DNA from: Candidatus Yanofskybacteria bacterium RIFCSPHIGHO2_01_FULL_41_21
GTDB lineage: Bacteria; Patescibacteriota; Minisyncoccia; 2-02-FULL-40-12; GWA2-44-9
Direction of reading: 5' to 3'
NCBI GenBank assembly: GCA_001794025.1
Contig: MGJA01000012.1
Span: forward strand, 8,455 to 72,454
DNA: 64,000 nt
Each line of letters opens with the position of its first letter. The first letter of the stretch is position 1. A program made the translations under genes and the position numbers. Under the pieces are notes generated by a model. That model was not told the DNA's origin, searched no databases, and worked only from the letters and a program-made list of their open reading frames with translations. This document shows, in pieces, positions 9,829 to 63,546 of this stretch.

Positions 9829-11004
9829 TCACACAATAATTCCCCCGCCAAGCATTCGTTGTCCACTGTAAAAAACAGCTGACTGACCGGAAGTAACAGC
9901 CCGTTCGGGTTTTTCAAATCTTAAAATTCCTTTTTTATTTAGAGTTGCTTTAACCGATTTAGTCCGATATCGAACTTTGATATATAAACGAGCAGGTAAA
10001 ATTGGTCTATCTAACCAATTAAAATCTTCAATTCTGGCTTCATTCCCAACAACTTGAGCGTCCGGACCAACATAAATAATATTCTTTTTTATATCTTTAG
10101 CGATGACGTAAAAAGGGCCTTTGCTAGTTTTAATATCCAGTCCATGACGTTGACCAATAGTATAATAATAGACACCATCGTGTGTACCAATCTGCGCTCC
10201 GGAAAATTCGCCTATTCGCCTATTCGCGCGAATAGGCGAATAGGGGTTCTGCTTCTTGTCAAGAAGAATGATTGGTCCTTTTTTGGGTTTGATATATGTA
10301 AGTAAAAATTCTTTCATATCTAGGGGACCAATAAAACACACCCCCTGACTGTCTTTCTTCTCGGCATTCGGTAGTTTAAATTTTTTGGCCAATTTCCTAA
10401 CTTCCGGTTTTAGTAAGTCCCCAACAGGAAATAGACAGTATTTTAACTGTTTTTGGGTCAATGTCCATAGAAAATATGATTGATCTTTATTTTTGTCTTT
10501 CGCCTGATATAATTTGTATATTTCTTTTTTTTGTATTTTTGATTTATTTAGGATTTCGTATTTAGTATTTAAAATTTCCCGCTTTATGCGGGTATAATGT
10601 CCCGTCGCAATATAATCGGCACCTTCTTTTAAGGCCCGTTTTAAAAATAGTCCAAACTTAATTTCTTTATTACACATTACATCAGGATTCGGCGTTCGAC
10701 CGGATTTGTATTCCCGAATCATATAATCGGTTACTAATTTTTTGTATTCTTTGGAAAAATCCCAAGTCAATAACGGAATCCCAATCGCTGTTGCTACCCG
10801 CATCGCATCTTCTCGATCCGCTTGCCAAAGGCAAGCAGTTTCTATTCTAGAGTTTCTAGTTTCTAGTTGTGGACTCCAGGGACGCATAAAGACCCCAACA
10901 ACATTAAATCCCTGCCTTTTCAGCAGGGCTCCTGCCACAGAACTATCTACTCCCCCTGACATCCCGACATACACTGTTTTAATTTTATGTTGACTTTTTA
11001 TCAT
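9829..11004 (-). CDS. mnmA: tRNA-specific 2-thiouridylase MnmA
   Basis: PP-loop VGMSGGVDSSV, catalytic Cys region and C-terminal barrel. Carries an in-frame palindromic insertion (see the 10207 repeat). Confidence 0.9.
   Translation of the reverse strand: MIKSQHKIKTVYVGMSGGVDSSVAGALLKRQGFNVVGVFMRPWSPQLETRNSRIETACLWQADREDAMRVATAIGIPLLTWDFSKEYKKLVTDYMIREYKSGRTPNPDVMCNKEIKFGLFLKRALKEGADYIATGHYTRIKREILNTKYEILNKSKIQKKEIYKLYQAKDKNKDQSYFLWTLTQKQLKYCLFPVGDLLKPEVRKLAKKFKLPNAEKKDSQGVCFIGPLDMKEFLLTYIKPKKGPIILLDKKQNPYSPIRANRRIGEFSGAQIGTHDGVYYYTIGQRHGLDIKTSKGPFYVIAKDIKKNIIYVGPDAQVVGNEARIEDFNWLDRPILPARLYIKVRYRTKSVKATLNKKGILRFEKPERAVTSGQSAVFYSGQRMLGGGIIV
10207..10243. repeat. intragenic perfect palindrome (CCTATTCG x2 then CGAATAGG x2) inserted in-frame in mnmA
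   Basis: Sequence ttcgCCTATTCGCCTATTCGCGCGAATAGGCGAATAGGgg. Encodes extra residues (NPYSPIRANRRIGEFSG) at a position where E. coli MnmA, from memory, has only GDE. Confidence 0.6.
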
Positions 11005-32843: not shown

Positions 32844-32917
32844 TGGCTGCGGGGGAAGGAATCGAACCTTCATTTTAGGATTCAAAGTCCCGCGTCCTAC
32901 CGTTAGACGACCCCGCA
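32844..32917 (-). tRNA. tRNA-Gln (anticodon TTG), CCA encoded
   Basis: Minus strand: UGCGGGG-UC-GUCUAACGGUAGGAC-G-CGGGA-CUUUGAA-UCCUA-AAAU-GAAGG-UUCGAUU-CCUUC-CCCCGCA-G-CCA. Cloverleaf folds with a 7-bp acceptor, GG-containing D-loop, UUCGAUU T-loop and anticodon UUG. One C-A mismatch closes the anticodon stem. Confidence 0.75.
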
Positions 32918-32921
32918 AATA

Positions 32922-33617
32922 TTATTTTTTTGGAATAGAATTTATTATACCATTTGTCCAGCCAGAAATCTTTCTATTTAATTCAGAACTTGCCAATATG
33001 TTAATCCTCAATACCCCATAATAATCGTTACCAACATTCATTCTCCTTGTATTAATCTTATTCTTTTTAAAATAGATGTGCCTGAACTTATCCACCAAAA
33101 TAGATGTTTCTTTTGACCAAAACTTTATCACTGCCGGTATTCTATCTCTGTGACTTTCATGTATGTAGATTTCTGGAATAATCCTTTCTTTAGAAATACC
33201 GCATACTTTAACTAACCAAAACATGAAAAATCTTATCATATTTTGGTCAGAATTGCTAAATTTAGCTGAAGACCCCGGACGCAACTCTTTTTCTTTAGAT
33301 CCTTCTGCCCAATAAAGAGCAACGCCTATGAGCCACAATTCCCTTTTGGATAATACTCCTATTTCTTCTTCAGCTATTGTTTTAATTCTATAACTTCGTT
33401 CAATTCTTTGTTCCTTTTTTTTAAGGCCCCCTCGCAATGCAGAAGCTAATTTTTTGTCAGTAAGTCGTTGTTTCTGTTTTTTAGATAATCCAACGGACTG
33501 TAACCAAAGAGCTAAACTAGATTTTGCAACCGGAATTTGAGCAAGAATTTCAGAATAAGAAAGACCTTGTTTTCTCAATTCTACGGCCTTAATTTTTTCT
33601 GATTCTTTTTTAATCAT
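32922..33617 (-). CDS. HTH-domain protein with degenerate single-motif LAGLIDADG-like endonuclease fold
   Basis: N-terminal resolvase-type HTH (GLSYSEILAQIPVAKSSLALWL). WLIGVALYWAEGSKE ... FFMFWLVKVCGI parallels the LAGfvDGDGS ... fLdkLvdeiGvG of I-CreI-like proteins. Stop codon is 5 nt from the tRNA-Gln 5' end. Confidence 0.45.
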   Translation of the reverse strand: MIKKESEKIKAVELRKQGLSYSEILAQIPVAKSSLALWLQSVGLSKKQKQRLTDKKLASALRGGLKKKEQRIERSYRIKTIAEEEIGVLSKRELWLIGVALYWAEGSKEKELRPGSSAKFSNSDQNMIRFFMFWLVKVCGISKERIIPEIYIHESHRDRIPAVIKFWSKETSILVDKFRHIYFKKNKINTRRMNVGNDYYGVLRINILASSELNRKISGWTNGIINSIPKK

Positions 33618-34112: not shown

Positions 34113-35183
34113 TTACAAGGACATCACCGCGAGTTCCAGGGGTAGTTGAGGAATAGGAGAGAATTTTATTTGGCTTCGGGCTAAAGTAAACGTATTTATA
34201 ATTTTGATGAGTTTTTCGTTATCTATAGTATTAAGGGCAGAGAATTGTTGGTGAGCTTCGGGACCTTCAATGGAGGCCGAGAGGGTTGGATTTACCCGTG
34301 AAAGCAAAGCGCTTCGGGCGTAAGATATAAATTCCTTAGTAAAATGTTCCAAGTCCATGCCCGCATCATGAATGGTATGAATAAGGGCTACAGCCGAGGC
34401 CTTGTCGCCCGAAGCAAGAAATCCTAATAATTTAGGATGATAGGAAATAGGTATTAAACCCAAGACATCTGCCACTTCTTTTTCTCCAATTGGACCCGAA
34501 GGAATCATGCTTCGGATTTTGGTTAATGCCACTTCGGCGTCACGAAGCGCGCCATCGGATGATTTGGCAATCGCCAACAAGGCCAAGTCATCAATCTGAA
34601 TTTTTTCGGCTTGAGCGATGGATTTTAATTTAGTGACCATTTCGGCGGGAGTAATGCGTTTGAAATCAAAACGCTGGACGCGGGAAAGAACCGTCGCTAA
34701 AATTTTATGGGGTTCGGTTGTGGCGAGAATAAACACCACGTGAGCCGGCGGTTCTTCAAGAATTTTTAATAAGGCATTAAAAGAATCCTTAGTAAGCATA
34801 TGAACCTCGTCAATCAAAAAGACCTTATATCCGCCCGACGGCGCAGAGACCTGGGCCGATTCTTTGAGAGCACGAATTTCATCAATTCCGCGATTAGAAG
34901 CGGCATCTATTTCAATTAAATCCAACGAGGTGCCATTATTGACCGAGAGACAGGCCTCACATGTATTACAGGGTAGGATAGTCCCCTTCTTCCCAAAATC
35001 TGCGCAATTGAGCGCCTTCGCAAAGATTCTCGCTATTGTTGTCTTTCCTGTCCCTCGCGGGCCCGTAAATAAATAGGCCTGACCCACTCGGCCAGACGAA
35101 AGCGCCCCTTCAAGAGTTCTGACCACATGCTCTTGTCCTACTAATTGTGAGAATACTTGAGGTCGGTATTTTCTGTACAGCAT
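34113..35183 (-). CDS. dnaX: DNA polymerase III subunit gamma/tau (short form)
   Basis: MLYRKYRPQVFSQLVGQEHV, Walker A GPRGTGKTT, zinc module CNTCEAC, SRC motif. Confidence 0.9.
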   Translation of the reverse strand: MLYRKYRPQVFSQLVGQEHVVRTLEGALSSGRVGQAYLFTGPRGTGKTTIARIFAKALNCADFGKKGTILPCNTCEACLSVNNGTSLDLIEIDAASNRGIDEIRALKESAQVSAPSGGYKVFLIDEVHMLTKDSFNALLKILEEPPAHVVFILATTEPHKILATVLSRVQRFDFKRITPAEMVTKLKSIAQAEKIQIDDLALLAIAKSSDGALRDAEVALTKIRSMIPSGPIGEKEVADVLGLIPISYHPKLLGFLASGDKASAVALIHTIHDAGMDLEHFTKEFISYARSALLSRVNPTLSASIEGPEAHQQFSALNTIDNEKLIKIINTFTLARSQIKFSPIPQLPLELAVMSL

Positions 35184-35188
35184 AAAAT

Positions 35189-35218
35189 AGTAATTAGCGA
35201 TTAGAACCTAGGACTTAG
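35189..35218. repeat. left inverted repeat / heptamer array (AGTAATTAG-CGATTAG-AACCTAG-GACTTAG) flanking the four-helix-bundle gene
   Basis: Matches 35573..35602 in inverted orientation, with the two middle heptamers swapped. Confidence 0.45.
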
Positions 35219-35558
35219 CCCTTTTTATCATACTATTCAACATTTTCCTAACTTCAGTAAGTAAGTTAACTATATCAGTATAACCTGACTTTATATAGTT
35301 CAGTTCATATGCCAATATTAATTGGGATTCAATTTCACTTGTTGAACCAAATGCCATAGAAAGAAACTGCTGTCCCTCTTTAAATGTTCTTCTACTAAAT
35401 CCTTCTGCAATATTGGACATAACTGAAACAGAAGCTCTTCTGAGCTGATTAGTGAGCCCGTATATTTCAGACCTAGGAAATGATTCTGTTACCCGATATA
35501 TTTCCTTAGTAAGGACCAGCGATTTCTGCCAAACAATTAGATCTTTGTAAGAATTCAT
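35208..35558 (-). CDS. four-helix-bundle protein (family commonly found in 23S rRNA intervening sequences)
   Basis: DLIVWQKS...E.YGLTNQLRRASVSVMSNIAEGFSR...E..QFL.MA.GS..E...QL.LA is the characteristic pattern of this family. Confidence 0.8.
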   Translation of the reverse strand: MNSYKDLIVWQKSLVLTKEIYRVTESFPRSEIYGLTNQLRRASVSVMSNIAEGFSRRTFKEGQQFLSMAFGSTSEIESQLILAYELNYIKSGYTDIVNLLTEVRKMLNSMIKRAKS

Positions 35559-35572
35559 ATCCTTCTGTTTTT

Positions 35573-35602
35573 CTAAGTCCTAATCGCTAGGTTCTAATTA
35601 CT
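35573..35602. repeat. right inverted repeat of the four-helix-bundle cassette
   Basis: CTAAGTC-CTAATCG-CTAGGTT-CTAATTACT. Confidence 0.45.
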
Positions 35603-36269
35603 TCCTGAAGACGGCGAGTTTGAAGCCGACGAAACTGAAGACCAAAGCTATTGCCGAACCGGCGACAGCACCGACGTTAGCCCAGATATGGGCGTTCAAA
35701 CCGGCAAAAGGTTGAATATAATTTACAACCAATGTGGCGATGCCAACATTAATAGAGAATGAAACAACAGTGACTATAAAAAACTTACCGAATTCAGTGG
35801 CTCCGCCTTCGTTATTTTTGGAGTGAAAAGCCCAATATTTATTCCAAATATAACTGGAACAAAGAGCAATCAGAAACGAGATTGATTTCATGGCCGAATA
35901 ACCCTTGCCGTCAACGAAACCAGTTTGCGAGATAAGAATATTTAAAATTCCAAAATCAACGGCAGCATTTGTAAAGCCAATAGCCGAAAATTTTCCGAAT
36001 TGGTTGAAAAATTCCAACCACTCCCCAAGAAGGTACCCCAACAATACACCAAGAATCCAAAGAACAGGAACCAGAAATATTAACCAAGTCCAAGAAATGC
36101 CATCTGTCGCAGACCCGAAACAATAACCCATATCACAATTTATTCCACTGGAAAGTAATTCCGGTATTTTTAAAAACTCAAATATCTTCCACCCAATCGT
36201 GCCCGTGAGCAATCCTGTCAACACCGCAAACCCCAGATCACGCTTAGTAAATTTTCGCAAAAAATTCAT
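35598..36269 (-). CDS. GtrA-like family membrane protein
   Basis: C-terminal half has the GtrA pattern (G..N...DF..LN.L ... NKYWAF) with 4 TM helices. N-terminal extra TM region. Confidence 0.5.
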   Translation of the reverse strand: MNFLRKFTKRDLGFAVLTGLLTGTIGWKIFEFLKIPELLSSGINCDMGYCFGSATDGISWTWLIFLVPVLWILGVLLGYLLGEWLEFFNQFGKFSAIGFTNAAVDFGILNILISQTGFVDGKGYSAMKSISFLIALCSSYIWNKYWAFHSKNNEGGATEFGKFFIVTVVSFSINVGIATLVVNYIQPFAGLNAHIWANVGAVAGSAIALVFSFVGFKLAVFRK

Positions 36270-39568: not shown

Positions 39569-41083
39569 ATGCAAAGATACTCGCACAGAGAAATATTAAT
39601 TATTGTTGGTATTCTTATTATCGCATCATTCTTCCGGTTCTATCAATTAGATAAATATCCGCCGGGTCTCTATCCCGACGAAGCCATGAATGGTTCCAAC
39701 GCTCTCGTCGCCAATGCTACGGGTGATTATAAAATTTTCTATCCTGAAAATTTTGGCCGAGAGGGCTTATTTATTAATATCCAAGCCCTCTCAATTAAGT
39801 GGTTCGACGTCAATTCGTGGTCGCTACGAAGCGTTTCCGCCATTTTCGGAATTCTAACTGTCTTGGGTCTTTTTCTGTTGGCCCGAGAACTATTTAGTTG
39901 GCAGGTTGGAGCAGTATCAAGTTTTTTGCTGGCAATTTCATTTTGGCATGTAAATTTTTCTCGGATTGGATTCAGGGCAATTATGTTGCCTTTTATTTTG
40001 GTCTATTTATTTTATTTCCTCTGGAAGGGTCTGAAACATTCAAGTTGGATAGATTTCTTTTGGGCTGGAATTTTAGGTGGATTGGGATTTTATACCTATA
40101 CCTCATACCGTATCGCGCCTTTAATCGCCATCCTTATCTTCATTAACTACTGGATGTTTATAAAAAAGGACTTTCATCACGAAAATTACGAACATACCCG
40201 CAATCGTTTTTTGGGTGGTTTCTCTCTTTTTATGATTACTGTCTTTTTTGTTGCTCTGCCAATTGGTATCTACTTCTTGAAAAATCCGGAAAACTTTATG
40301 CAACGCAACACGCAATCGGTGTTTGCTCAAGAACAATCATTTCGTGAGCTTGGGGGTAGCGTCATTAAAACACTAGGCATGTTTACCTTTCAAGGTGATG
40401 GTAATGTCCGCCATAATCTAGATAGTCAACCCATGTTGGGCTGGCCAATTGCTATTTTGTTTGCTATTGGATTTTTAAAAGAGTTATATCATTGGTTAAG
40501 ACGAAAACACGGTCATTTTTCACCCGTCCATACGTTATTGTTTGTCTGGTTCTTCGTGTTTCTTATTCCGGGATTTCTTTCAACCGAAGCACCTCACGCC
40601 TTGCGCGCTGTCGGCGTAATTCCCGTCGTTATGATATTTGCTGCGAGGGGTTTTATGTGGTTATTTAACGCCGCTGAAGGATGGGAAAAAATTACTCATC
40701 CCTGGATGGCCCAAGGCCACCGTCAATTTGTTTTACCAATTTTAGTAGCATTTTCCCTCTTGGGCGCATTCAGTTTCTACGAATACAACCGGTATTTTAA
40801 TATTTGGGGACCAAGCCAAAAAACGGCCGATTCTTTCTCTGTAAATTATGTTGAGATTGCCAATGAAATAAATGCCTCACCAATAACTAAAAAGAAATAT
40901 GTTATTGTAAGCCCTTCATCAGTTGATGCTTATGGTTTACCAATTCGTGCCGAAACGGTTATGTTTTTAACTGACACGGTTTTACCTCCCACTCAGCGCG
41001 CTAAAAATTTAACCTACCTAACAGTTGACCAAGCAAAAAATTATAAATTCAGCCCAAACGCTTCGGTTTGGTATGTTAAATAA
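39569..41083 (+). CDS. GT39/ArnT-like (PMT-family) polyprenyl-phosphate-sugar-dependent glycosyltransferase
   Basis: N-terminal YPPGLYPDEAMNGSNA (DE motif in first loop) and about 11 TM helices. Confidence 0.75.
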   Translation: MQRYSHREILIIVGILIIASFFRFYQLDKYPPGLYPDEAMNGSNALVANATGDYKIFYPENFGREGLFINIQALSIKWFDVNSWSLRSVSAIFGILTVLGLFLLARELFSWQVGAVSSFLLAISFWHVNFSRIGFRAIMLPFILVYLFYFLWKGLKHSSWIDFFWAGILGGLGFYTYTSYRIAPLIAILIFINYWMFIKKDFHHENYEHTRNRFLGGFSLFMITVFFVALPIGIYFLKNPENFMQRNTQSVFAQEQSFRELGGSVIKTLGMFTFQGDGNVRHNLDSQPMLGWPIAILFAIGFLKELYHWLRRKHGHFSPVHTLLFVWFFVFLIPGFLSTEAPHALRAVGVIPVVMIFAARGFMWLFNAAEGWEKITHPWMAQGHRQFVLPILVAFSLLGAFSFYEYNRYFNIWGPSQKTADSFSVNYVEIANEINASPITKKKYVIVSPSSVDAYGLPIRAETVMFLTDTVLPPTQRAKNLTYLTVDQAKNYKFSPNASVWYVK

Positions 41084-42897
41084 TGAAAAGATATTCGCTC
41101 ATCGCTGGCGTATTGATTGTTGTCACCAGTATTATCGCCATTGCCAGTGCTTGGCATGATTCCCCTATTGTTGACGAAATTCCTCACATCGGCGCCGGTT
41201 ATTCATACGTTTCCGGTCATACATATCAATTCAATCCCGAACATCCTCCGCTGGCAAAAGATTTTGCCGGTCTAGCCCTTCTGACACTCAAGATTAATCC
41301 CAACTTTCTTTCATCTTATAATATTTCTCACCAAGGAATAGTAAACGACCAATGGAATTTTGGACGACAACTGATATACCACTCCGGCGTTGATCCGGCT
41401 ACTATTGTTCATACTGCTAAACTCCCCCTTATATTATTCTTTATTTTATCCGGTTGGCTTATCTATGCTTGGGGAAAACGAACATATAATCACCGTACCG
41501 CTCTTCTGGCGGTATTTCTGTTTGCATTTTCTCCGACTATAATCGCTCACAGTCGATTTGTGACAACCGATGTCCCCGCTCTCTTTGGAATTTTATTCGC
41601 GACCTATTTTTTTCTTCGTTACCTGCGAGAACATAACACTTTAAATTTTTGGTTGGCTTCAGTCACATTCGGCGTCGCCCTGCTCACTAAGTTTTCAACA
41701 TTTCTCCTTATTCCCTACTTCTTACTCTTGGCTCTTGTTTGGGTCTGGATTCAAAACAATGAGTATATTAAACCCACTTTTCGTTTGCTTACAAGGACCG
41801 CCCTCGTAATGGTGGTGGGATTCGTTGTAATTGTTGGACCGATTTATCAATTACAAATTTTTAATTATCCACCCACTCAGCAAAAAAATGACACTGAAAT
41901 AATTCTTAGAAATTATCCCGTCCCCACCCTTTCTAAAGCCGTCATCTGGGCGTCGGACAAACCAGTACTTCGGTCATACGCTCAATGGGGTCTGGGAATG
42001 GCAATGGTTTTTCAACGCGCCGAAGGCGGTAACAATACTTATTTCCTTGGTCAATTCTCTAATAAATCATTTAAAGCATATTTCCCAGTTGTCTATGTCC
42101 TTAAAGAACCAATTCCGTTTTTAATTCTTCTTTTAAGCGCAATCTGGCTCGGTTGGAGGGCGTGGCGTAATAATCGCGAACCATTTAAAAATAAACTGCG
42201 TGACCGCTTTCCGGTTTTTGCTATGCTTCTTTGGATTTTTATCTATGTCGCCACAAGTATCAACGCCAATCTTAATATCGGCGTTCGCCATCTTATTCCA
42301 ATCTACGGATTTATCTTTATTCTAACGGCCGGGGCAATTGAAAAAATGATTACGGATTACGGATTACGGATTAAAACCGGATCGGGTAAATTCGTAATTC
42401 GTAATTCGCAATTCGTAATTGTTGGATTATTAATTTGGTATTTGGTTGAATTTATCTCCTTCTATCCTAACTACCTAACCTACTTTAATCAATTTGCTCT
42501 TTTCCGTCCTTCTTGGGTTTCAGAAGAACAAAAAAATTGGCCGAGAGGCGGATATAATTATGTCGTTGATTCTAATCTTGATTGGGGTCAAGATCTCTGG
42601 CGTTTGGACGATTTTATAAAACAAAATAAAATTCAAAAGATATATCTTGATTATTTCGGCTGGGCTGATCCAACCTTTTATCTCGGTGACGCCTTTGTTT
42701 GGATAGTGGGCGGAAAATACACCAGCGCCGAGTCCTTTCTTAAAGACAACCCCGCCGGCGGTTGGCTTGGCGTCTCCGCCAGTTTCTACCAAGAATCAAC
42801 CGTTAATCCCGCCAGTCCATATACCTGGCTTGAAAATATAAAACCGACGGCGATGGTTGGTAACTCAATTTTCGTCTGGCATATCACTCAACCTTAG
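41083..42897 (+). CDS. GT39/GT83-like membrane glycosyltransferase, second copy
   Basis: N-terminal HDSPIVDEIPHIGAGYSY...EHPPLAK, polytopic. Start overlaps the stop of the upstream gene. Contains an in-frame tandem/inverted heptamer insertion (see 42355). Confidence 0.7.
   Translation: MKRYSLIAGVLIVVTSIIAIASAWHDSPIVDEIPHIGAGYSYVSGHTYQFNPEHPPLAKDFAGLALLTLKINPNFLSSYNISHQGIVNDQWNFGRQLIYHSGVDPATIVHTAKLPLILFFILSGWLIYAWGKRTYNHRTALLAVFLFAFSPTIIAHSRFVTTDVPALFGILFATYFFLRYLREHNTLNFWLASVTFGVALLTKFSTFLLIPYFLLLALVWVWIQNNEYIKPTFRLLTRTALVMVVGFVVIVGPIYQLQIFNYPPTQQKNDTEIILRNYPVPTLSKAVIWASDKPVLRSYAQWGLGMAMVFQRAEGGNNTYFLGQFSNKSFKAYFPVVYVLKEPIPFLILLLSAIWLGWRAWRNNREPFKNKLRDRFPVFAMLLWIFIYVATSINANLNIGVRHLIPIYGFIFILTAGAIEKMITDYGLRIKTGSGKFVIRNSQFVIVGLLIWYLVEFISFYPNYLTYFNQFALFRPSWVSEEQKNWPRGGYNYVVDSNLDWGQDLWRLDDFIKQNKIQKIYLDYFGWADPTFYLGDAFVWIVGGKYTSAESFLKDNPAGGWLGVSASFYQESTVNPASPYTWLENIKPTAMVGNSIFVWHITQP
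42355..42420. repeat. intragenic tandem-inverted heptamer repeat (GATTACG x2.5 then AATTCGT x4) in-frame within the GT39-like gene
   Basis: acggattacggattacggattaaaaccggatcgggtaaattcgtaattcgtaattcgcaattcgtaatt, encoding ITDYGLRIKTGSGKFVIRNSQFVIV. Confidence 0.45.
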
Positions 42898-45022: not shown

Positions 45023-46281
45023 TTGATTTCTTTGAATCCGCAATATTTTTGGAGGACTTTGGGGATTTTAATGGAACCGTTTTTTTGTTGGAAGTTTTCT
45101 ATGATGGCAATTGGCCAGCGACTTGAATAATTAATGGCCGTGCCGTTAAGTGTGTGAACAAATTCAGTATCGCCGTTTTCTTTTCGGTAACGAATATTTA
45201 ATCGGCGGGCCTGAAAGTCAGTGCAATTAGAAGCACTGGTAATTTCTCCGTATCCGCCGGTTGATGAGGCGGAGTCGCCTTTCATGACCATCCAGGCCTC
45301 AATATCAAATTTACGGTAAGCCGGCCCACCTAGATCTTGGCTCGCCACGTCTATCACACGATATGGGAATCCAAGTCCACTAGCAATTTCACGTTCAATG
45401 GTTAAAATTTCCTGATGCATTACTTCACTTTCTTCGGGTTTACAAAAAACAAACATCTCTAATTTCACGAATTGATGGACCCGATACATACCTTTTGAAG
45501 TCCGACCATAAGCTCCGGCTTCGGTACGAAAACAATGAGACAAAGCCACATATTTCTTTGGACCCTTAGAAAGATCTAGAATTTCGTTGGCGTGATATCC
45601 CCCGATTGTAATCTCGGCTGTTCCTATTAAAGATAGGTCATTATTATCAATTGAATATATTTGTGTTTCCGGGCCGCGGGGATTAAATCCGATTCCTTCC
45701 AAAATTTCGTCTTTGGCTAAATCGGGGGTCTCCATTAATTCATAACCATGTTTGGTAACAATATCAATGCCGTACTGAATCAGGGCCTGATTTAATCGGA
45801 CCAAGTCACCTTTAGAAAAGAAAAACTTATTACCGGCTACTTTGGTACCACGTTCAAAATCTATCAGACCTAAATCCAGCAAAATGGCTTCGTGGTCTTT
45901 TGGTTCAAAATTAAACTTTGGTATTTTGCCTTCGGTTGCCAGGACTTTGAAATCCTCCTCTCCACCGATGGGAGTTTCGGGATGGGTTAAATTGGGTACT
46001 GCTTTTAATAATTTATTATAATCAATCTCAATAGTTGCCAACTCTTTTTCAAGCGTCGCTATCTGATCACCGACTTGGCGCATTTTGGCGATATCTTCCT
46101 CGCTCGGTTTGCCTTTGGAACCCTGATTTCTTTGGGCCCGTAATTCTTCAATTTGAGCCATATGCGCCCGACGATCACGATCAAGCGTTAAAAGATTATC
46201 CAAATCCAAAACCACACCTCTGTTTTTCAAATTTTCTTTTATCAGTTCCGCGTGTTCGCGAATATATTTTATATCAAGCAT
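45010..46281 (-). CDS. serS: seryl-tRNA synthetase
   Basis: N-terminal coiled-coil arm. Class II motifs 2 (FRTEAGAYGR-like: CFRTEAGAYGRTSKGMYRVHQF) and 3 (GGYG...). 423 aa. Confidence 0.9.
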   Translation of the reverse strand: MLDIKYIREHAELIKENLKNRGVVLDLDNLLTLDRDRRAHMAQIEELRAQRNQGSKGKPSEEDIAKMRQVGDQIATLEKELATIEIDYNKLLKAVPNLTHPETPIGGEEDFKVLATEGKIPKFNFEPKDHEAILLDLGLIDFERGTKVAGNKFFFSKGDLVRLNQALIQYGIDIVTKHGYELMETPDLAKDEILEGIGFNPRGPETQIYSIDNNDLSLIGTAEITIGGYHANEILDLSKGPKKYVALSHCFRTEAGAYGRTSKGMYRVHQFVKLEMFVFCKPEESEVMHQEILTIEREIASGLGFPYRVIDVASQDLGGPAYRKFDIEAWMVMKGDSASSTGGYGEITSASNCTDFQARRLNIRYRKENGDTEFVHTLNGTAINYSSRWPIAIIENFQQKNGSIKIPKVLQKYCGFKEIKSRT

Positions 46282-46282
46282 T

Positions 46283-46322
46283 TTTTAGGATTTAGAACTT
46301 AGGAATTAGGACTTAGAACTTA
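46283..46322. repeat. tandem heptamer array NNNNTAG (GATTTAG-AACTTAG-GAATTAG-GACTTAG-AACTTAG) between serS and lysS
   Basis: Same heptamer family as the arrays flanking the four-helix-bundle gene. Confidence 0.35.
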
Positions 46323-46353
46323 GTTTCTGACCCTATGTCCTAATGGCTAATTA

Positions 46354-47688
46354 CTAGTGGCTATCTTTGGGTCGCATGGTTGGGAAAAGAATAACTTCGC
46401 GCAGGGAATGGGAATCGGTTAAAAGGGCGACGAGGCGGTCAATGCCGATACCGAAGCCGGCTGAAGGTGGCATGCCGTATTCAAGGGCTTCAATGAAATC
46501 ATTGTCCATGCGTTGAGCTTCTTCATCACCTTTGGCGCGCATATTTTCTTGGGCCTTAAATCTTTCCTGTTGATCAATCGGGTCGTTTAATTCGGTGAAG
46601 GCCTTAACTAGCTCTGTTCCGCCGGCATAAAATTGAAAGGCCTCTACGACATCCGTACCGGGCTTTAATTTAGTAAGAGGTAACATATCTTTTGGATAGT
46701 CCATAACAAATGTTGGTTCAATCAGTGTCCCCCGAATTTTTTCTTTAAAAACAGTGTCCTCCAAACTGCCAACGTCCTGCATGAGTTCTTTGTAGGTAAT
46801 TCGGCGAAATGGTTTTTTGAATCTTTCAGGCGCAATTGTAACCATTAAGTCCTCAATAAAATCCATACCCCAATTATAGTCCTTATAAGCGACATAAAAT
46901 TCTACGGCTGAAAATTCAGGATTGTGTTCTCGATCAATGCCTTCATTTCTAAAATTAGTGGTAAATTCAAAAACCCGATCTAACCCGCCAACCAAAAGAC
47001 GCTTTAAATATAGTTCCGGCGCAATACGAAGAAACATATCTTGATCAAGAGCATTTAAATGGGTCTTGAACGGGCGGGCAGAAGCACCACCATATAACGG
47101 TTGCAGAGTCGGTGTGGTTACTTCCAAAAATTCATGTTTCATTAAATAGTGACGAATGGCTTGGATAATCTCGGCGCGCTTGATAAATTTCTCGCGAACT
47201 TCAGTACTCATCAATAAATCAAGATAGCGTTTACGGAAACGTTCTTCCACATCAATCAATCCGTGCCACTTTTCCGGCAACGGCAAAAGGGTCTTGGTCA
47301 ATATCCCTATTTCGGTGGCTTCTATAGTGCGTTCGTCTTTTTTGGTTTTGAAAAGAGTTCCCCTAACCTCAATGATGTCACCAATATCAATCAGTTCATT
47401 AAAAAATTTAAACCCATCCGCGCCAAGGGTGTCTTCTTTGGCACAACCTTGGATTTTTGAACCATCTTCATTCAAGTCAAAGAAAATAAGTCCGCCATGT
47501 CCACGTTGGGCCATAATCCTGCCAGCTAGGGTTACCTCTTTTTTTGACTCTGCAAGTTCATCAAATCTTTCCAATGCTTCAACCACGCTCATTGAGCGTT
47601 TTGTTGTCGCCGGATACGGATCTATCCCCATCTTCCGTATTTCCTTCAACTTATCCATTTTTACTTGCCGAATATCATCAAGAGCCAT
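46354..47688 (-). CDS. lysS: lysyl-tRNA synthetase (class II)
   Basis: OB-fold N-domain and class II catalytic core (motif 2 FRNEG, motif 3 GIGIDRL). Start is likely the internal Met (MALDDIRQ) rather than the ORF-track 47727. Confidence 0.9.
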   Translation of the reverse strand: MALDDIRQVKMDKLKEIRKMGIDPYPATTKRSMSVVEALERFDELAESKKEVTLAGRIMAQRGHGGLIFFDLNEDGSKIQGCAKEDTLGADGFKFFNELIDIGDIIEVRGTLFKTKKDERTIEATEIGILTKTLLPLPEKWHGLIDVEERFRKRYLDLLMSTEVREKFIKRAEIIQAIRHYLMKHEFLEVTTPTLQPLYGGASARPFKTHLNALDQDMFLRIAPELYLKRLLVGGLDRVFEFTTNFRNEGIDREHNPEFSAVEFYVAYKDYNWGMDFIEDLMVTIAPERFKKPFRRITYKELMQDVGSLEDTVFKEKIRGTLIEPTFVMDYPKDMLPLTKLKPGTDVVEAFQFYAGGTELVKAFTELNDPIDQQERFKAQENMRAKGDEEAQRMDNDFIEALEYGMPPSAGFGIGIDRLVALLTDSHSLREVILFPTMRPKDSH

Positions 47689-47878
47689 CCGAGTAGTAGA
47701 AGTTCCGGAATAATAATACAGACCCAAGCAGCCGGAACTTCACTACTTGGTTCATAGTATTAAGTATATAGTATTACGTATTATGTATCCAGAGCTTTAA
47801 AATATCAAATAAAACTAAACGCCGTCTCGGAACACCTCCTTGTTAGTGATGGCGTTTAGTGAGACGGCGGAAATTTGG

Positions 47879-61384: not shown

Positions 61385-62005
61385 CTAGGTAACCTTATCT
61401 GGTTCGGCTTTAACTTGACCTTGAGGAACTTTTTTCTTTAAGTCCTTAAAAATAAGAATTTGCATCAATCCACCGAAGATGGCAAAAATCCCGCCAATAA
61501 TAAATACGAAATTAAAACCGAATCTTTGGGCAATAATACCGCCCAAAGCGGCTGCGCCCGCCGCCGCTAAACCAATAGACACCGAATCAAGCGTCCATTC
61601 AAAACTTTCGTGCATTTTATCTAAGTGTCTGGAAAAAATCGCGTACCAAGGGGGCACGACAAACGCGATACCGACCCCATATATTGCCTGTATAATATAG
61701 ATGTGAATTATTGAATTAGCAAAAAGATAAGCAAAAGGGACCATAGCAATAAGGGTACTACCGATAATAAGAGAATAAAAATCATCATACTCGCCATGGT
61801 TTTTATCTAAAATTTTAGCCAAAGGTAACTCAACAATTATTTTACACAATTGAACAATGGCCGCACCAAAACCTATTGCTTCAATGGTTCCGCCGGAAAT
61901 TTGGCGGGTAATAAAAATCGCCACCACGGGCGCAAAGACACTAAATCCGGCATTCACAAAAAAATCAGCTAGAACTAAAGTTCTAATAACGCGATTAATA
62001 CGCAT
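61385..62005 (-). CDS. MFS-type transporter (6-TM half-size)
   Basis: 206 aa with 6 TM helices and MFS-like loops. Confidence 0.5.
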   Translation of the reverse strand: MRINRVIRTLVLADFFVNAGFSVFAPVVAIFITRQISGGTIEAIGFGAAIVQLCKIIVELPLAKILDKNHGEYDDFYSLIIGSTLIAMVPFAYLFANSIIHIYIIQAIYGVGIAFVVPPWYAIFSRHLDKMHESFEWTLDSVSIGLAAAGAAALGGIIAQRFGFNFVFIIGGIFAIFGGLMQILIFKDLKKKVPQGQVKAEPDKVT

Positions 62006-62104
62006 GCAAGTTTACGGTTTACAGTTTCTTGTTTACAGTATAGCAAAATTAAAACAGCCAGCAAATCGCTGATCTGTAAACTGTGAACTAGAAACTAGAA
62101 ACTT

Positions 62105-63295
62105 TTACAACTGTGGCATCCCCCAACCGGAATCGGAATCATCGCCGGAAGGAAGGATATCCAAAGAAAATTTATGTAAAAGTTCGCGCGTGGCTTGGGC
62201 TGGCTTTTTAGCATATGTCTCCCATTCTTTAGCGGCTAAGCCGGTAATGTGAGCAGCAGCCATAGAAGCACCGGATGAAGTCGTATAGTAACCATTGTTT
62301 GCGGTTGATTCAATATTTACTCCCGGTCCGACAAGTTCCAAATCGCCGAAATTTCTTTCATATGAAGTGGAGGCCTCATTATTCCCTCGAGCGCTCCAAT
62401 CAGGAACAACAAGAATTTCATCAACCACTCCGACACTTACAACATCTACGTTGGAGGCCGGATAATCAATACTGTTCTTGTAAGGGCCATCGTTGCCGGC
62501 GGCACCGATAATCATTACTCCTTTTTCTGTGGCATAAGAAATTGCATCATTAATAAGTGAGCTTTCGGAATCAGAACCCAAACTCAAGAGGATGATATTA
62601 GCTCCAGTGTCAACGCTTTGTCTGATTGCTTCGGCAACGTCATCCGTGAAACAAGTACCGTCATTATTACAGACCTTATAAATCATTAATCCGGATTGAG
62701 GGGCGACGCCATAAATACCTTTACCCATCGGTCCGCCATTGCCGGCGACAACACCCGCCACCAAAGTTCCGTGACCGTTTTTATCTTCGCAACTTTCTTC
62801 AACAAAGGAATCAAAGCCCGACAAATCGTTGCAAGCGATAATTTGATCTTTTAAATCAGGATGATTGACTAAAACACCCGTATCTAAGATTGCAACCTTA
62901 ATTCCATCGCCACCGGATGGTACTGCATCATTAAGAGTATCACCGTAAATGGCCTTAACACCCCAGCCAATCTGACTCGTTGGGGTCTTGATAACAGGTT
63001 TCGTAGTTGTCTTTTTAACTGCTACTGTCGTGGCTAGAATATTTAACCTTTTGACTGGAGTCACTTCAACGCCAAAGACCTTGGCGACTTTTAATTGCCA
63101 ATCTGTGAGATTAGCCGTAAATCCGGAATCAAAAACATTCCGTACTTGAAACGATTTTTTCCAGAATTGAGAGGTGGATTTTACGAAATAACGACTATCG
63201 GTCCCTTGGTTAGATTGACTAGCTGCCTGGACACCCGACGTCGCCACAAAAAACAAGGTAAAGACCAAGCAAACTAGGGCTTTCTTTATATTCAT
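62105..63295 (-). CDS. secreted subtilisin-like serine protease (S8 family)
   Basis: Catalytic triad contexts ILDTGV (Asp), HGTLVAGVVAG (His), GTSMAAAHITG-like GASMAAAHITG (Ser). Signal peptide MNIKKALVCLVFTLFFVATSGVQA; start is the internal Met at 63295 rather than 63454. Confidence 0.85.
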   Translation of the reverse strand: MNIKKALVCLVFTLFFVATSGVQAASQSNQGTDSRYFVKSTSQFWKKSFQVRNVFDSGFTANLTDWQLKVAKVFGVEVTPVKRLNILATTVAVKKTTTKPVIKTPTSQIGWGVKAIYGDTLNDAVPSGGDGIKVAILDTGVLVNHPDLKDQIIACNDLSGFDSFVEESCEDKNGHGTLVAGVVAGNGGPMGKGIYGVAPQSGLMIYKVCNNDGTCFTDDVAEAIRQSVDTGANIILLSLGSDSESSLINDAISYATEKGVMIIGAAGNDGPYKNSIDYPASNVDVVSVGVVDEILVVPDWSARGNNEASTSYERNFGDLELVGPGVNIESTANNGYYTTSSGASMAAAHITGLAAKEWETYAKKPAQATRELLHKFSLDILPSGDDSDSGWGMPQL

Positions 63296-63355
63296 GGTTA
63301 TGCTGGCTAGTATAGCATAATGGGGGCAAGCCAGCAATCCACAGGGGTCGCTCGA

Positions 63356-63546
63356 CCATTGTATTCTTCTCGCTGTTCTCTCCGCCTGTCTCGTAACCTC
63401 AATTTCCTCATTGCTTCCGAACAAATAGGCCACCTTGCCTTCAGCCACCCTCAAAGGGTGGCTTTCGGTTCCTATTTGTTACCGAAAGAATTTCGGAAAT
63501 TTTCGGACGAGAAGACGGCGTCGTTCAGCGCTCAAGAATACAATGG
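63356..63546. repeat. about 190-nt nested palindromic intergenic element (outer IR CCATTGTATTCTTCTCGCTG / CAGCGCTCAAGAATACAATGG with inner hairpins)
   Basis: Outer 20-bp imperfect IR, inner GAACAAATAGG...CCTATTTGTT and GCCACCC-TCAAA-GGGTGGC hairpins. Between the S8 protease start and the DedA stop. Confidence 0.4.

Follow-up and report, generated by a model that had tools for sequence, protein, structure and literature searches.

A four-helix-bundle gene between inverted heptamer arrays: a probable mobile mini-cassette that resembles rRNA intervening sequences in its layout

Intervening sequences (IVSs) that carry an open reading frame (ORF) for the S23p protein (PF05635) are found in the 23S or 16S ribosomal RNA (rRNA) genes of Coxiella, Leptospira, Brucella, and Xanthomonas, and such ORFs are also reported from rRNA insertions of the candidate phyla radiation (CPR) (PMC4990558; bioRxiv 10.1101/2024.02.27.582315). 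Here, we describe a gene of the same protein family in a 64,000-nt stretch of Candidatus Yanofskybacteria bacterium RIFCSPHIGHO2_01_FULL_41_21 (contig MGJA01000012.1, positions 8,455 to 72,454), hereafter called the window. The gene encodes a four-helix-bundle (4HB) protein and lies between two inverted arrays of heptamers, the arms, at the junction of a GtrA-like gene and dnaX. We consider this feature to be, with fair probability, a promoterless mobile mini-cassette that has the architecture of an rRNA IVS and resides in an mRNA operon instead of an rRNA gene. The rRNA IVS is the closest known system. In the Coxiella 23S IVS, the S23p ORF is enclosed by a 28-bp terminal stem, and the 5' arm contains three GACAGAT repeats upstream of the ORF, the number of which varies between strains. 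RNase III has been shown experimentally to cut this IVS at the first heptamer repeat, and in some strains the S23p ORF is decaying as the RNA element is retained (PMC4990558). As a CAG-type unit, GACAGAT fits the Y-A-G rule derived below. The cassette in the window shares with the rRNA IVS the protein family, an ORF placed in sense within the host transcript (on the same strand as both neighbors), and complementary termini that enclose the ORF in a predicted stem-loop. In contrast, it is situated between protein-coding genes and not in an rRNA helix, and cleavage of its stem would split an operon message rather than fragment an rRNA.

Intergenic heptamer repeats have been described as the short tandemly repeated repetitive (STRR) sequences of cyanobacteria, as GGGAATC in Xanthomonas, as GGGGA(C/T)T in Nostoc, and as TAACTGA in Beggiatoaceae, with no known function (PMC4692102, PMC4679880). 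They resemble the cassette arrays in having tandem 7-nt units in short intergenic spacers, a variable copy number, and genome-specific units, but the cassette arrays differ in forming inverted pairs that usually enclose a PF05635 gene. Organisms with STRR-type repeats are also rich in 4HB genes (the plasmids of Nostoc and Calothrix; the solved 4HB structure 2GSC is from Xanthomonas). A term search of both papers found no mention of S23p, four-helix-bundle proteins, or intervening sequences. A 4HB gene has been noted between cmr3 and cmr2 (PMC3936711) and between gmk and nadD in Flavobacterium (PMC5524665). Earlier work thus already covers this protein family, its occurrence in rRNA IVSs and in operons, and the unexplained intergenic heptamer repeats. 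A full-text literature search of incomplete coverage returned no report that links the 4HB family to heptamer arrays besides the Coxiella IVS heptamers. It likewise returned no description of a family-wide architecture of inverted YAG arrays with a 7- to 8-nt period, of their mobility as a unit, or of their decay to gene-less arrays.

Short palindromic elements provide a further comparison. Correia/NEMIS elements resemble miniature inverted-repeat transposable elements (MITEs) and are palindromes that are cotranscribed with host genes and cut by RNase III, and Rickettsia palindromic elements are inserted in frame in genes. Like these, the cassette is a short inverted-repeat element without a transposase of its own that lies in or between genes, is apparently transcribed with the host genes, and can be folded into a hairpin. 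Unlike MITEs, it has tandem arms that differ in sequence between copies, it shows no target-site duplication, and its gene-sized copies mostly carry one gene. With respect to transposons and MITEs with terminal inverted repeats (TIRs), inverted termini are present as tandem arrays and not as a unique TIR. Neither a transposase nor many near-identical copies were found, as the other sites in the window share units with the cassette and not whole sequences. A resemblance to integron attC sites or to repetitive extragenic palindromes (REP/RAYT) was set aside, as the unit consensus fits neither GTTRRRY nor GTAG.

The cassette and its protein family

On the minus strand of the window, the GtrA-like gene (35598 to 36269; a GtrA/DPMS-type membrane protein by profile match) is followed by the 4HB gene (35208 to 35558) and by dnaX (34113 to 35183; the clamp-loader gamma/tau subunit by profile matches), all three in the same orientation. 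The upstream (5') arm at 35573 to 35602 reads AGTAATTAG AACCTAG CGATTAG GACTTAG on the coding strand and is conserved in the metagenome loci L001 to L004. It is followed by a 14-nt leader, AAAAACAGAAGGAT (35559 to 35572), which contains the Shine-Dalgarno-like sequence GAAGGA, directly precedes the 4HB ATG, and is also present in L001 and L004. The downstream (3') arm at 35189 to 35218 reads CTAAGTC CTAGGTT CTAATCG CTAATTACT on the coding strand and pairs with the upstream arm in the minimum-free-energy (MFE) fold. The plus strand of the same positions reads AGTAATTAG CGATTAG AACCTAG GACTTAG, so both arms consist of the same four heptamer units with the middle two exchanged, exactly as given in a preliminary description of this DNA. 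That description had presented the exchange as a segment swap. The swap is present but is not a designed feature, as unit order and number vary freely between arms and between relatives.

The cassette, in sense orientation, takes the place of the entire spacer from the upstream stop codon to the downstream start codon. The TAA stop of the GtrA-like gene (35598 to 35600) falls within unit 1 of the upstream arm, unit 1 of the downstream arm codes for the last residues of the 4HB protein, and unit 2 holds the 4HB stop (35208 to 35210). The dnaX ATG (35181 to 35183) begins 5 nt past the end of the downstream arm. At the filled junctions (window 35184 to 35188, L086, L090, L094, and L098), dnaX has no Shine-Dalgarno-like sequence because the arm reaches within 3 to 5 nt of its ATG. 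GAGG, AAGG, or GGAGG precedes the dnaX ATG at several of the empty junctions compared (L087, L088, L095, and L100).

The 116-residue product of the 4HB gene is a full-length member of PF05635 (127.5 bits against a cutoff of 33.8; E = 3e-37). It also matches TIGR02436, "four helix bundle protein" (124.7 bits; cutoff, 24), and NF008911 (138.7 bits; cutoff, 137), which bears out the identity first assigned to it. In a phmmer search, its closest relatives of solved structure were 2GSC (XCC0516 from Xanthomonas; E = 4e-21) and 2RLD (E = 6e-4), which were deposited with five chains each. Searches with tblastn revealed no second copy of the 4HB gene in the window and no match in 50,697 phage records. 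Scans for promoters and terminators around the cassette gave nothing above shuffle expectation and nothing within the arms. Across the window, Rfam at the gathering threshold detected one tRNA only and no rRNA, and the PADLOC defense models gave zero matches. The window has a G+C content of 41% and a gene content typical of Patescibacteria/CPR, and the closest homologues of its proteins carry the names Paceibacterota, Parcubacteria, or Patescibacteria.

A chance origin of the heptamer arrays is excluded. The pattern TAG(N4)TAG(N4)TAG(N4)TAG has 8 matches in the window, compared to 0.00 in 100 dinucleotide-preserving shuffles, and all 8 fall at the 4HB cassette or in the spacer between lysS and serS. 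Lag self-similarity, which does not assume a TAG, detected 7 period-7 arrays with 0.16 expected, and these were also confirmed by Tandem Repeats Finder (TRF). By the same measure, periods 5, 6, and 8 to 10 were at or below chance in the window. Tandem 7-nt units are likewise present above chance in intergenic spacers when judged as heptanucleotide simple sequence repeats.

We then examined whether such arrays accompany the protein family. The sample comprised 80 PF05635 loci on one-genome-per-species contigs from Acidobacteriota, Bacteroidota, Patescibacteria, Bacillota, Planctomycetota, Pseudomonadota, and other phyla. Together with the window and two close relatives, 82 loci were scored over 90 nt on each side of the gene. 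A stricter detector (at least 80% identity over 35 nt) missed the window's own degenerate arrays and was replaced. The preliminary description had allowed for the arrays being AT-rich sequence distributed without regard to this gene family. Instead, period-7 or period-8 arrays flanked 76 of the 82 4HB genes, 40 of which had period 7 on both sides, against 2 to 4% of control windows (3.5% with a period-7 and 1.9% with a period-8 signal among 2,490 windows from the same loci). TRF, which was run independently, identified arrays in 129 of 170 flanks, of which 104 had period 7, 21 had period 8, and 4 had any other period. These arrays have a median of 4.3 copies, the gap from the upstream array to the ATG being about 20 nt and that from the stop to the downstream array about 7 nt. 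Whether period 8 rather than 7 is a property of the protein was also considered, and this was rejected because period-8 cassettes form no protein clade (permutation p = 0.28).

In 58 of 82 loci, the upstream flank matched the reverse-complemented downstream flank, compared to 25 of 406 cross-locus pairs. The unit sequence differs in almost every genome, but the units have a common polarity: read inward, 65 of 73 arrays contain AG and 15 contain CT, with 53 arrays restricted to AG and 3 to CT (p = 8e-13). The inward consensus is Y-A-G-K-K-N-N, with a G directly before the YAG core in only 4 of 53 units. Gene-less inverted pairs have the same inward polarity (13 versus 2). The 4HB gene is co-oriented with both neighbors in 54 of 65 loci, and the median gaps of 55 and 45 nt beside it are mostly made of arrays. 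Across all sequence fetched, the spacing of inverted array pairs is bimodal, with 21 gene-less pairs at 0 to 60 nt and 62 pairs at 330 to 480 nt. A 4HB gene is enclosed by 60 of these 62 pairs, in a locus set that was chosen around 4HB genes. The heptamers are thus enriched at the 4HB gene, to which they had initially been tied, but are not exclusive to it, as they also occur in gene-less pairs, as in-frame copies, and around other small cargo. The same architecture is present on plasmids of cultured organisms, namely, N. punctiforme (CAGGAGT units), Azospirillum, and Riemerella, and partly in Nostoc PCC 7120 and Stanieria; plasmid matches to the 4HB protein are mostly from Nostoc and Calothrix. 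Inverted heptamer arrays therefore appear to be a general, and apparently undescribed, hallmark of the PF05635 family.

Both the gene and its arms are conserved. The ratio of nonsynonymous to synonymous substitution rates (dN/dS) of the 4HB gene is 0.04 to 0.07, compared to 0.05 for dnaX, indicating purifying selection. The arms of the window and L001 have 3 differences in 60 positions, compared to 0.415 per synonymous site of the 4HB gene (binomial P = 1e-10). Those of the window and L004 have 4 in 60, compared to 0.60 (binomial P = 3e-18), showing that the arms are under sequence constraint. Lineage-specific units occur in both arms of one locus (CGATTAG and AACCTAG in the window, CCATTAG in L179, and GATTTAG and AACTTAG in L175). 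With the ubiquitous GACTTAG excluded, unit sharing between arms had a Jaccard index of 0.43 within loci versus 0.014 between loci (four independent loci). Heptamer similarity also tracks 4HB protein similarity (Mantel p = 0.0015), and pairs of cassettes with an identical consensus unit have a mean protein identity of 72%, compared to about 46% overall.

Filled, empty, and decayed junctions

The junction between the GtrA-like gene and dnaX was read in metagenome loci anchored on dnaX, with a near set in which dnaX is 84 to 94% identical to that of the window. The cassette of the window, type A, is found there in L001 to L004. A second cassette, type B, has a 4HB protein that is 45 to 51% identical and units of the form TAGTTTC/CAGTTTA ... 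GAAACTA/TAAACTG. It occupies the junction in L085, L086, L090, L092, and L098 and also in L094 and L096 (dnaX 71% identical). The junction is empty, with a spacer of 11 to 51 nt and no array, in L088 and in the more distant L095, L097, L100, L108 to L110, L114, and L117, so the arrays are not a preexisting property of the junction. The left type B array is retained at the empty junctions of L087 and L091. In L111 (2289 to 2500) and L123 (1372 to 1651), the 4HB gene is internally deleted, with its N- and C-terminal coding ends and both arms kept, and L107 has a gene-less inverted pair. The remnants in L111 and L123 are intermediates between full cassettes and gene-less pairs. Together, these junctions show how the cassette decays: the ORF is first deleted internally, a gene-less inverted pair is left, and in the end a single array remains.

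The distribution of cassette types does not follow the dnaX tree. In this tree, the window (type A) is nearest to L086 (type B; dnaX 94% identical), and L001 (type A) clusters with genomes that have type B or an empty junction. For the window compared with L001, the synonymous divergence (dS) is 0.6 for the 4HB gene and 1.7 for the adjacent dnaX. The nearest other relatives of the 4HB protein (63 to 67% identical) are encoded at three unrelated junctions, LemA and an M48 peptidase, glutaredoxin and a thioredoxin-reductase-like gene, and DsbA and DnaG, at each of which the cassette is placed exactly between the stop and the start codon. Like the cassette of the window, these cassettes use NNNTTAG units (GACTTAG, GATTTAG, AACTTAG, and CCATTAG), and their ORFs end in CTAAGTCC-TAA. 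The 4HB gene and its arms are thus shown to be inherited, exchanged, and relocated together. The mobility that the preliminary description had suggested for a flanked copy of an IVS-associated family is supported by the presence/absence and replacement at this junction, by the three unrelated junctions, and by the lower dS of the 4HB gene. The comparison of synteny that it had proposed revealed junctions that are empty, differently filled, or marked by decayed remnants. Its other suggestion, of iteron-like sites that bind an unknown regulator, finds no support in that form, because the unit sequences differ between cassettes at the same locus.

The GtrA-dnaX junction is a hot spot for small inserts. 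In L089, it contains a HicA toxin gene with a DUF7387 partner, and in L093, it contains a small hydrophobic or membrane ORF. In L115, an ORF of about 300 residues, phosphotransferase-like by eye, is present there together with a divergent 4HB gene bracketed by CATGNNN arrays.

Two gene-less inverted pairs are present in the window itself. The first, at 46283 to 46356, was identified by direct reading, the TAG pattern, and TRF and consists of NNNTTAG units. A direct array had been reported between lysS and serS; this array is real, at 46283 to 46323, but the report was incomplete, as a second array at 46333 to 46356 faces it across a gene-less gap of about 9 nt. The pair fills the spacer between the lysS stop (46354 to 46356) and the serS ATG (46279 to 46281) and has the units GACTTAG and TAATTAG in common with the 4HB cassette. 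In the relative L165 (serS 96% identical), a 111-residue ORF lies between arms of the same kind at this junction, and in L166 (serS 83% identical), the spacer is 10 nt and has no array. The gene-less pair is therefore best read as a decayed cassette that has lost its ORF. The ORF of L165 (300 to 700) has a weak P-II/CutA-like match, is cargo other than 4HB, and is flanked by arms reading ...TGATTAG GACTTAG ... CTAAGTT CTAATAT CTAAGTC...; another relative has a 106-residue ORF at the lysS-serS junction.

The second pair, at 62008 to 62104, was detected by lag self-similarity and TRF and belongs to the second (type B) unit family, AGTTTAC/AGTTTCT ... TGTAAAC/TAGAAAC. It reads AGTTTAC GGTTTAC AGTTTCT TGTTTAC ... 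TGTAAAC TGTGAAC TAGAAAC TAGAAAC and fills the spacer from the stop of the gene at 62105 to 63454 to the ATG of the gene at 61385 to 62005, both of which are on the minus strand. Its units are those of the type B 4HB cassettes at the GtrA-dnaX junction of relatives, but despite the type B arrays, there is no type B 4HB gene in the window. This pair and the further arrays described in the last section suggest that arrays are able to exist and spread without a 4HB gene, a view on which the broader proposal below is built.

Arm pairing, proposed mechanism, and alternative explanations

The 30-nt arms are 73 to 79% complementary in several registers. The MFE fold of the 437-nt cassette transcript pairs them (z = -3.4) through AGUAAU/AUUACU (6 bp), a 7-nt bulge (UAGAACC), and a 17-bp helix, UAGCGAUUAGGACUUAG/CUAGGUUCUAAUCGCUA. 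Two G.U pairs in this helix bypass the segment swap. Covariation among the window, L001, and L004 involves few changes, one of which (U.G to U-A) keeps a pair and one of which (G-C to A.C) breaks a pair. The cassette begins with an arm of approximately four YAGNNNN heptamers, continues with the leader and its ribosome-binding site and with the 4HB ORF, and closes with an arm of approximately four reverse-complement heptamers. In the IVS-type mechanism that we propose, it would be transcribed from the host promoter. The arms would pair in the host transcript as an imperfect double-stranded RNA stem of about 23 to 30 bp, the base of which would bring the upstream stop and the downstream start together. 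By analogy with the Coxiella IVS, RNase III probably cuts the stem, which would release the 4HB message and separate the host cistrons. The basic, pentamer-forming 4HB protein may in turn act on the arms.

Several observations weigh against this reading. Arm pairing and RNase III cleavage are extrapolated from the rRNA IVS, and the duplex energies of sense and antisense RNA at 81 loci did not differ (36 versus 45; p = 0.30). The use of G.U pairs in this comparison also had no strand bias, so nothing in the pairing favors an RNA role over a DNA-level role of the arms. The requirement for a stem alone does not explain the Y-A-G core and the strict 7- to 8-nt period. The core, the fixed period, and the 4 to 5 copies go beyond what a stem needs and suggest a factor that reads the units, for which the encoded 4HB protein is the obvious candidate. 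About 7% of 4HB loci are without arrays, and at L010 and L048, the flanking arrays are direct and not inverted (L010 has GGGACTA-type units on both sides), which the hairpin model does not explain. The translation of a dnaX gene without a Shine-Dalgarno-like sequence behind the cassette is likewise not explained by an IVS-type element. No target-site duplication was seen when filled and empty GtrA-dnaX junctions were compared by eye. No transposase or recombinase was found beside any cassette examined, the 4HB gene being the only ORF in the element, and no integrase was noticed among the few neighbors scanned. Finally, some of the variation at the GtrA-dnaX junction could have arisen by exchange through homologous recombination in the genes on either side.

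It is possible, although we hold the idea with reservations, that the arms are binding sites of the encoded protein. A pentameric 4HB ring would sit on about five YAG heptamers in single-stranded RNA or DNA, with one unit per subunit, and the complex would promote the spread or maintenance of the arrays. Gene-bearing cassettes would then be autonomous and gene-less arrays nonautonomous, comparable to a transposon and its MITEs, and such binding is compatible with RNA pairing. The conserved Y-A-G core in otherwise free units, the fixed inward polarity that extends to gene-less pairs, a copy number centered on 4 to 5 units, and the five chains of both 2GSC and 2RLD fit this idea, as does the homology of the family to Avd, the accessory protein of diversity-generating retroelements (DGRs). 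The heptamers also covary with the 4HB phylogeny, the 4HB gene is under strong purifying selection, and the gene-less lysS-serS pair uses the unit family of the resident cassette. However, covariation is equally expected from simple linkage, the period-8 cassettes do not form a protein clade, the type B arrays of the window are not matched by a type B gene in the 64 kb, and the S23p protein of Coxiella is apparently not made (PMC4990558). We regard it as somewhat unlikely that the arms are instead DNA-level TIRs for a recombinase or transposase encoded elsewhere, whether MITE-like or structure specific in the manner of attC, with the 4HB gene only as cargo. This would account for inverted termini, for presence/absence polymorphism and relocation to unrelated sites, and for pairing energies without strand bias. 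Other small cargo between such arms (the P-II-like ORF of L165 and a PDDEXK_3 gene in L037) and gene-less pairs in frame inside mnmA and a GT39 gene also point in this direction. However, filled and empty junctions reveal no target-site duplication, no transposase gene lies beside any cassette examined, and the termini differ even among very close genomes, which a sequence-specific transposase would not tolerate. The presence of 4HB in 60 of 62 gene-sized pairs is also too uniform for arbitrary cargo, although the loci were chosen around 4HB genes.

The arrays may also act mainly as frame-independent translation stops, because a TAG every 7 nt closes three frames from either side and would allow a cassette to land after any gene. 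Every unit of the window has a TAG, upstream genes end in unit 1 both here and at the three other junctions, and the enriched periods are 7 and 8 only, not the multiples of three (6 and 9). Inward reading closes all three frames in 32 of 73 arrays, compared to 16 of 73 for outward reading (p = 0.0025). However, 16 of the 73 arrays have no inward stop and 41 have at least one open frame, the core is conserved as YAG, about half of the units having C, G, or A, and the complementarity of the two arms is left unexplained, which makes this explanation unlikely. That the arrays are slippage-prone AT-rich microsatellites or chance sequence unlinked to the gene is very improbable. Copy number and unit order do vary between relatives, and heptamer repeats are known to be overrepresented in bacterial intergenic DNA (PMC4692102), but zero matches are expected by chance, the enrichment at 4HB genes is strong across phyla, the arms are far better conserved than synonymous sites, and the polarity is fixed. 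An identity of the 4HB gene with Avd itself is extremely improbable. The two proteins are similar in having a homologous four-helix-bundle fold and clan and in being basic and pentamer forming, and there are weak matches to PF22296, bAvd-like (26.1 bits), NF033474 (23.9 bits), and phrog_3206. However, the scores are far under the cutoffs of 40 (PF22296) and 80 (NF033474) bits, there is no reverse transcriptase among the neighbors here or on syntenic contigs, and no template/variable repeat pair is present nearby.

The IVS-type reading can be extended to a broader proposal, which we put forward tentatively and with some doubt. PF05635 genes with inverted YAG-heptamer arrays may constitute a ubiquitous, unrecognized class of mobile elements, in which rRNA IVSs would be no more than the members that came to lie in rRNA. 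The units, about one per subunit, would be recognized by the 4HB pentamer, which would drive the spread or maintenance of the arrays, and gene-less arrays would be nonautonomous derivatives. If true, this would explain the heptamer excess in bacterial intergenic DNA (cyanobacterial STRR, Xanthomonas, and Beggiatoaceae) and the in-frame copies in conserved genes. PF05635 is among the commonest small bacterial gene families without a function, and the origin of rRNA IVSs and the cause of the intergenic heptamer excess are two further standing puzzles. If the architecture is general, the three would merge into one testable system in which (YAGNNNN)n is a defined RNA or DNA substrate for a defined protein, one site offers natural filled, empty, and decayed alleles, and RNase III processing is predicted inside operons. 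Gene-less heptamer arrays would then point to sites once occupied by a cassette, and in-frame arrays would account for unusual insertions within conserved proteins.

Other arrays in the window and its relatives

Several further arrays lie within genes. In mnmA (9829 to 11004, minus strand), which encodes the tRNA 2-thiouridylase, there are three in-frame arrays at 10206 to 10244, 10545 to 10571, and 10851 to 10868. They consist of an 8-mer palindrome, ATTCGCCT/GCGAATAG, of 3.9 copies of TATTTAG, and of 2.6 copies of the type B unit AGTTTCT. Each array coincides with an insertion (19, 15, and about 6 residues) relative to solved MnmA structures. These arrays resemble the Rickettsia palindromic elements. 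An inverted pair at 42349 to 42419 lies in frame inside the ORF of a GT39 glycosyltransferase (41083 to 42897, plus strand), with 3.7 copies of GATTACG facing 4.6 copies of AATTCGT (GATTACG/CGTAATT), and encodes ...ITDYGLRIKTGSGKFVIRNSQFVIV.... Many homologues of this glycosyltransferase, the nearest ones excepted, are up to about 20 residues shorter at the array site, a 90%-identical one is shorter by only 6 residues, and a subset has a similar insert. A single array of about 5 AGTATTA-like units at 47755 to 47788 is located directly upstream of the lysS start, with no opposed partner detected.

In L037 (1100 to 1600), a PDDEXK_3 gene ("GxxExxY," PF13366; E = 9e-44) lies between inverted GCAGAGAC/GCGGAGAC repeats about 1.4 kb from a 4HB cassette. 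PDDEXK_3 may be a second common cargo family for such arms. Near dnaX in the window, a tRNA gene (32847 to 32917, minus strand) is immediately followed by a 231-residue ORF without a Pfam match (32922 to 33617), a copy of which also follows dnaX in L001.

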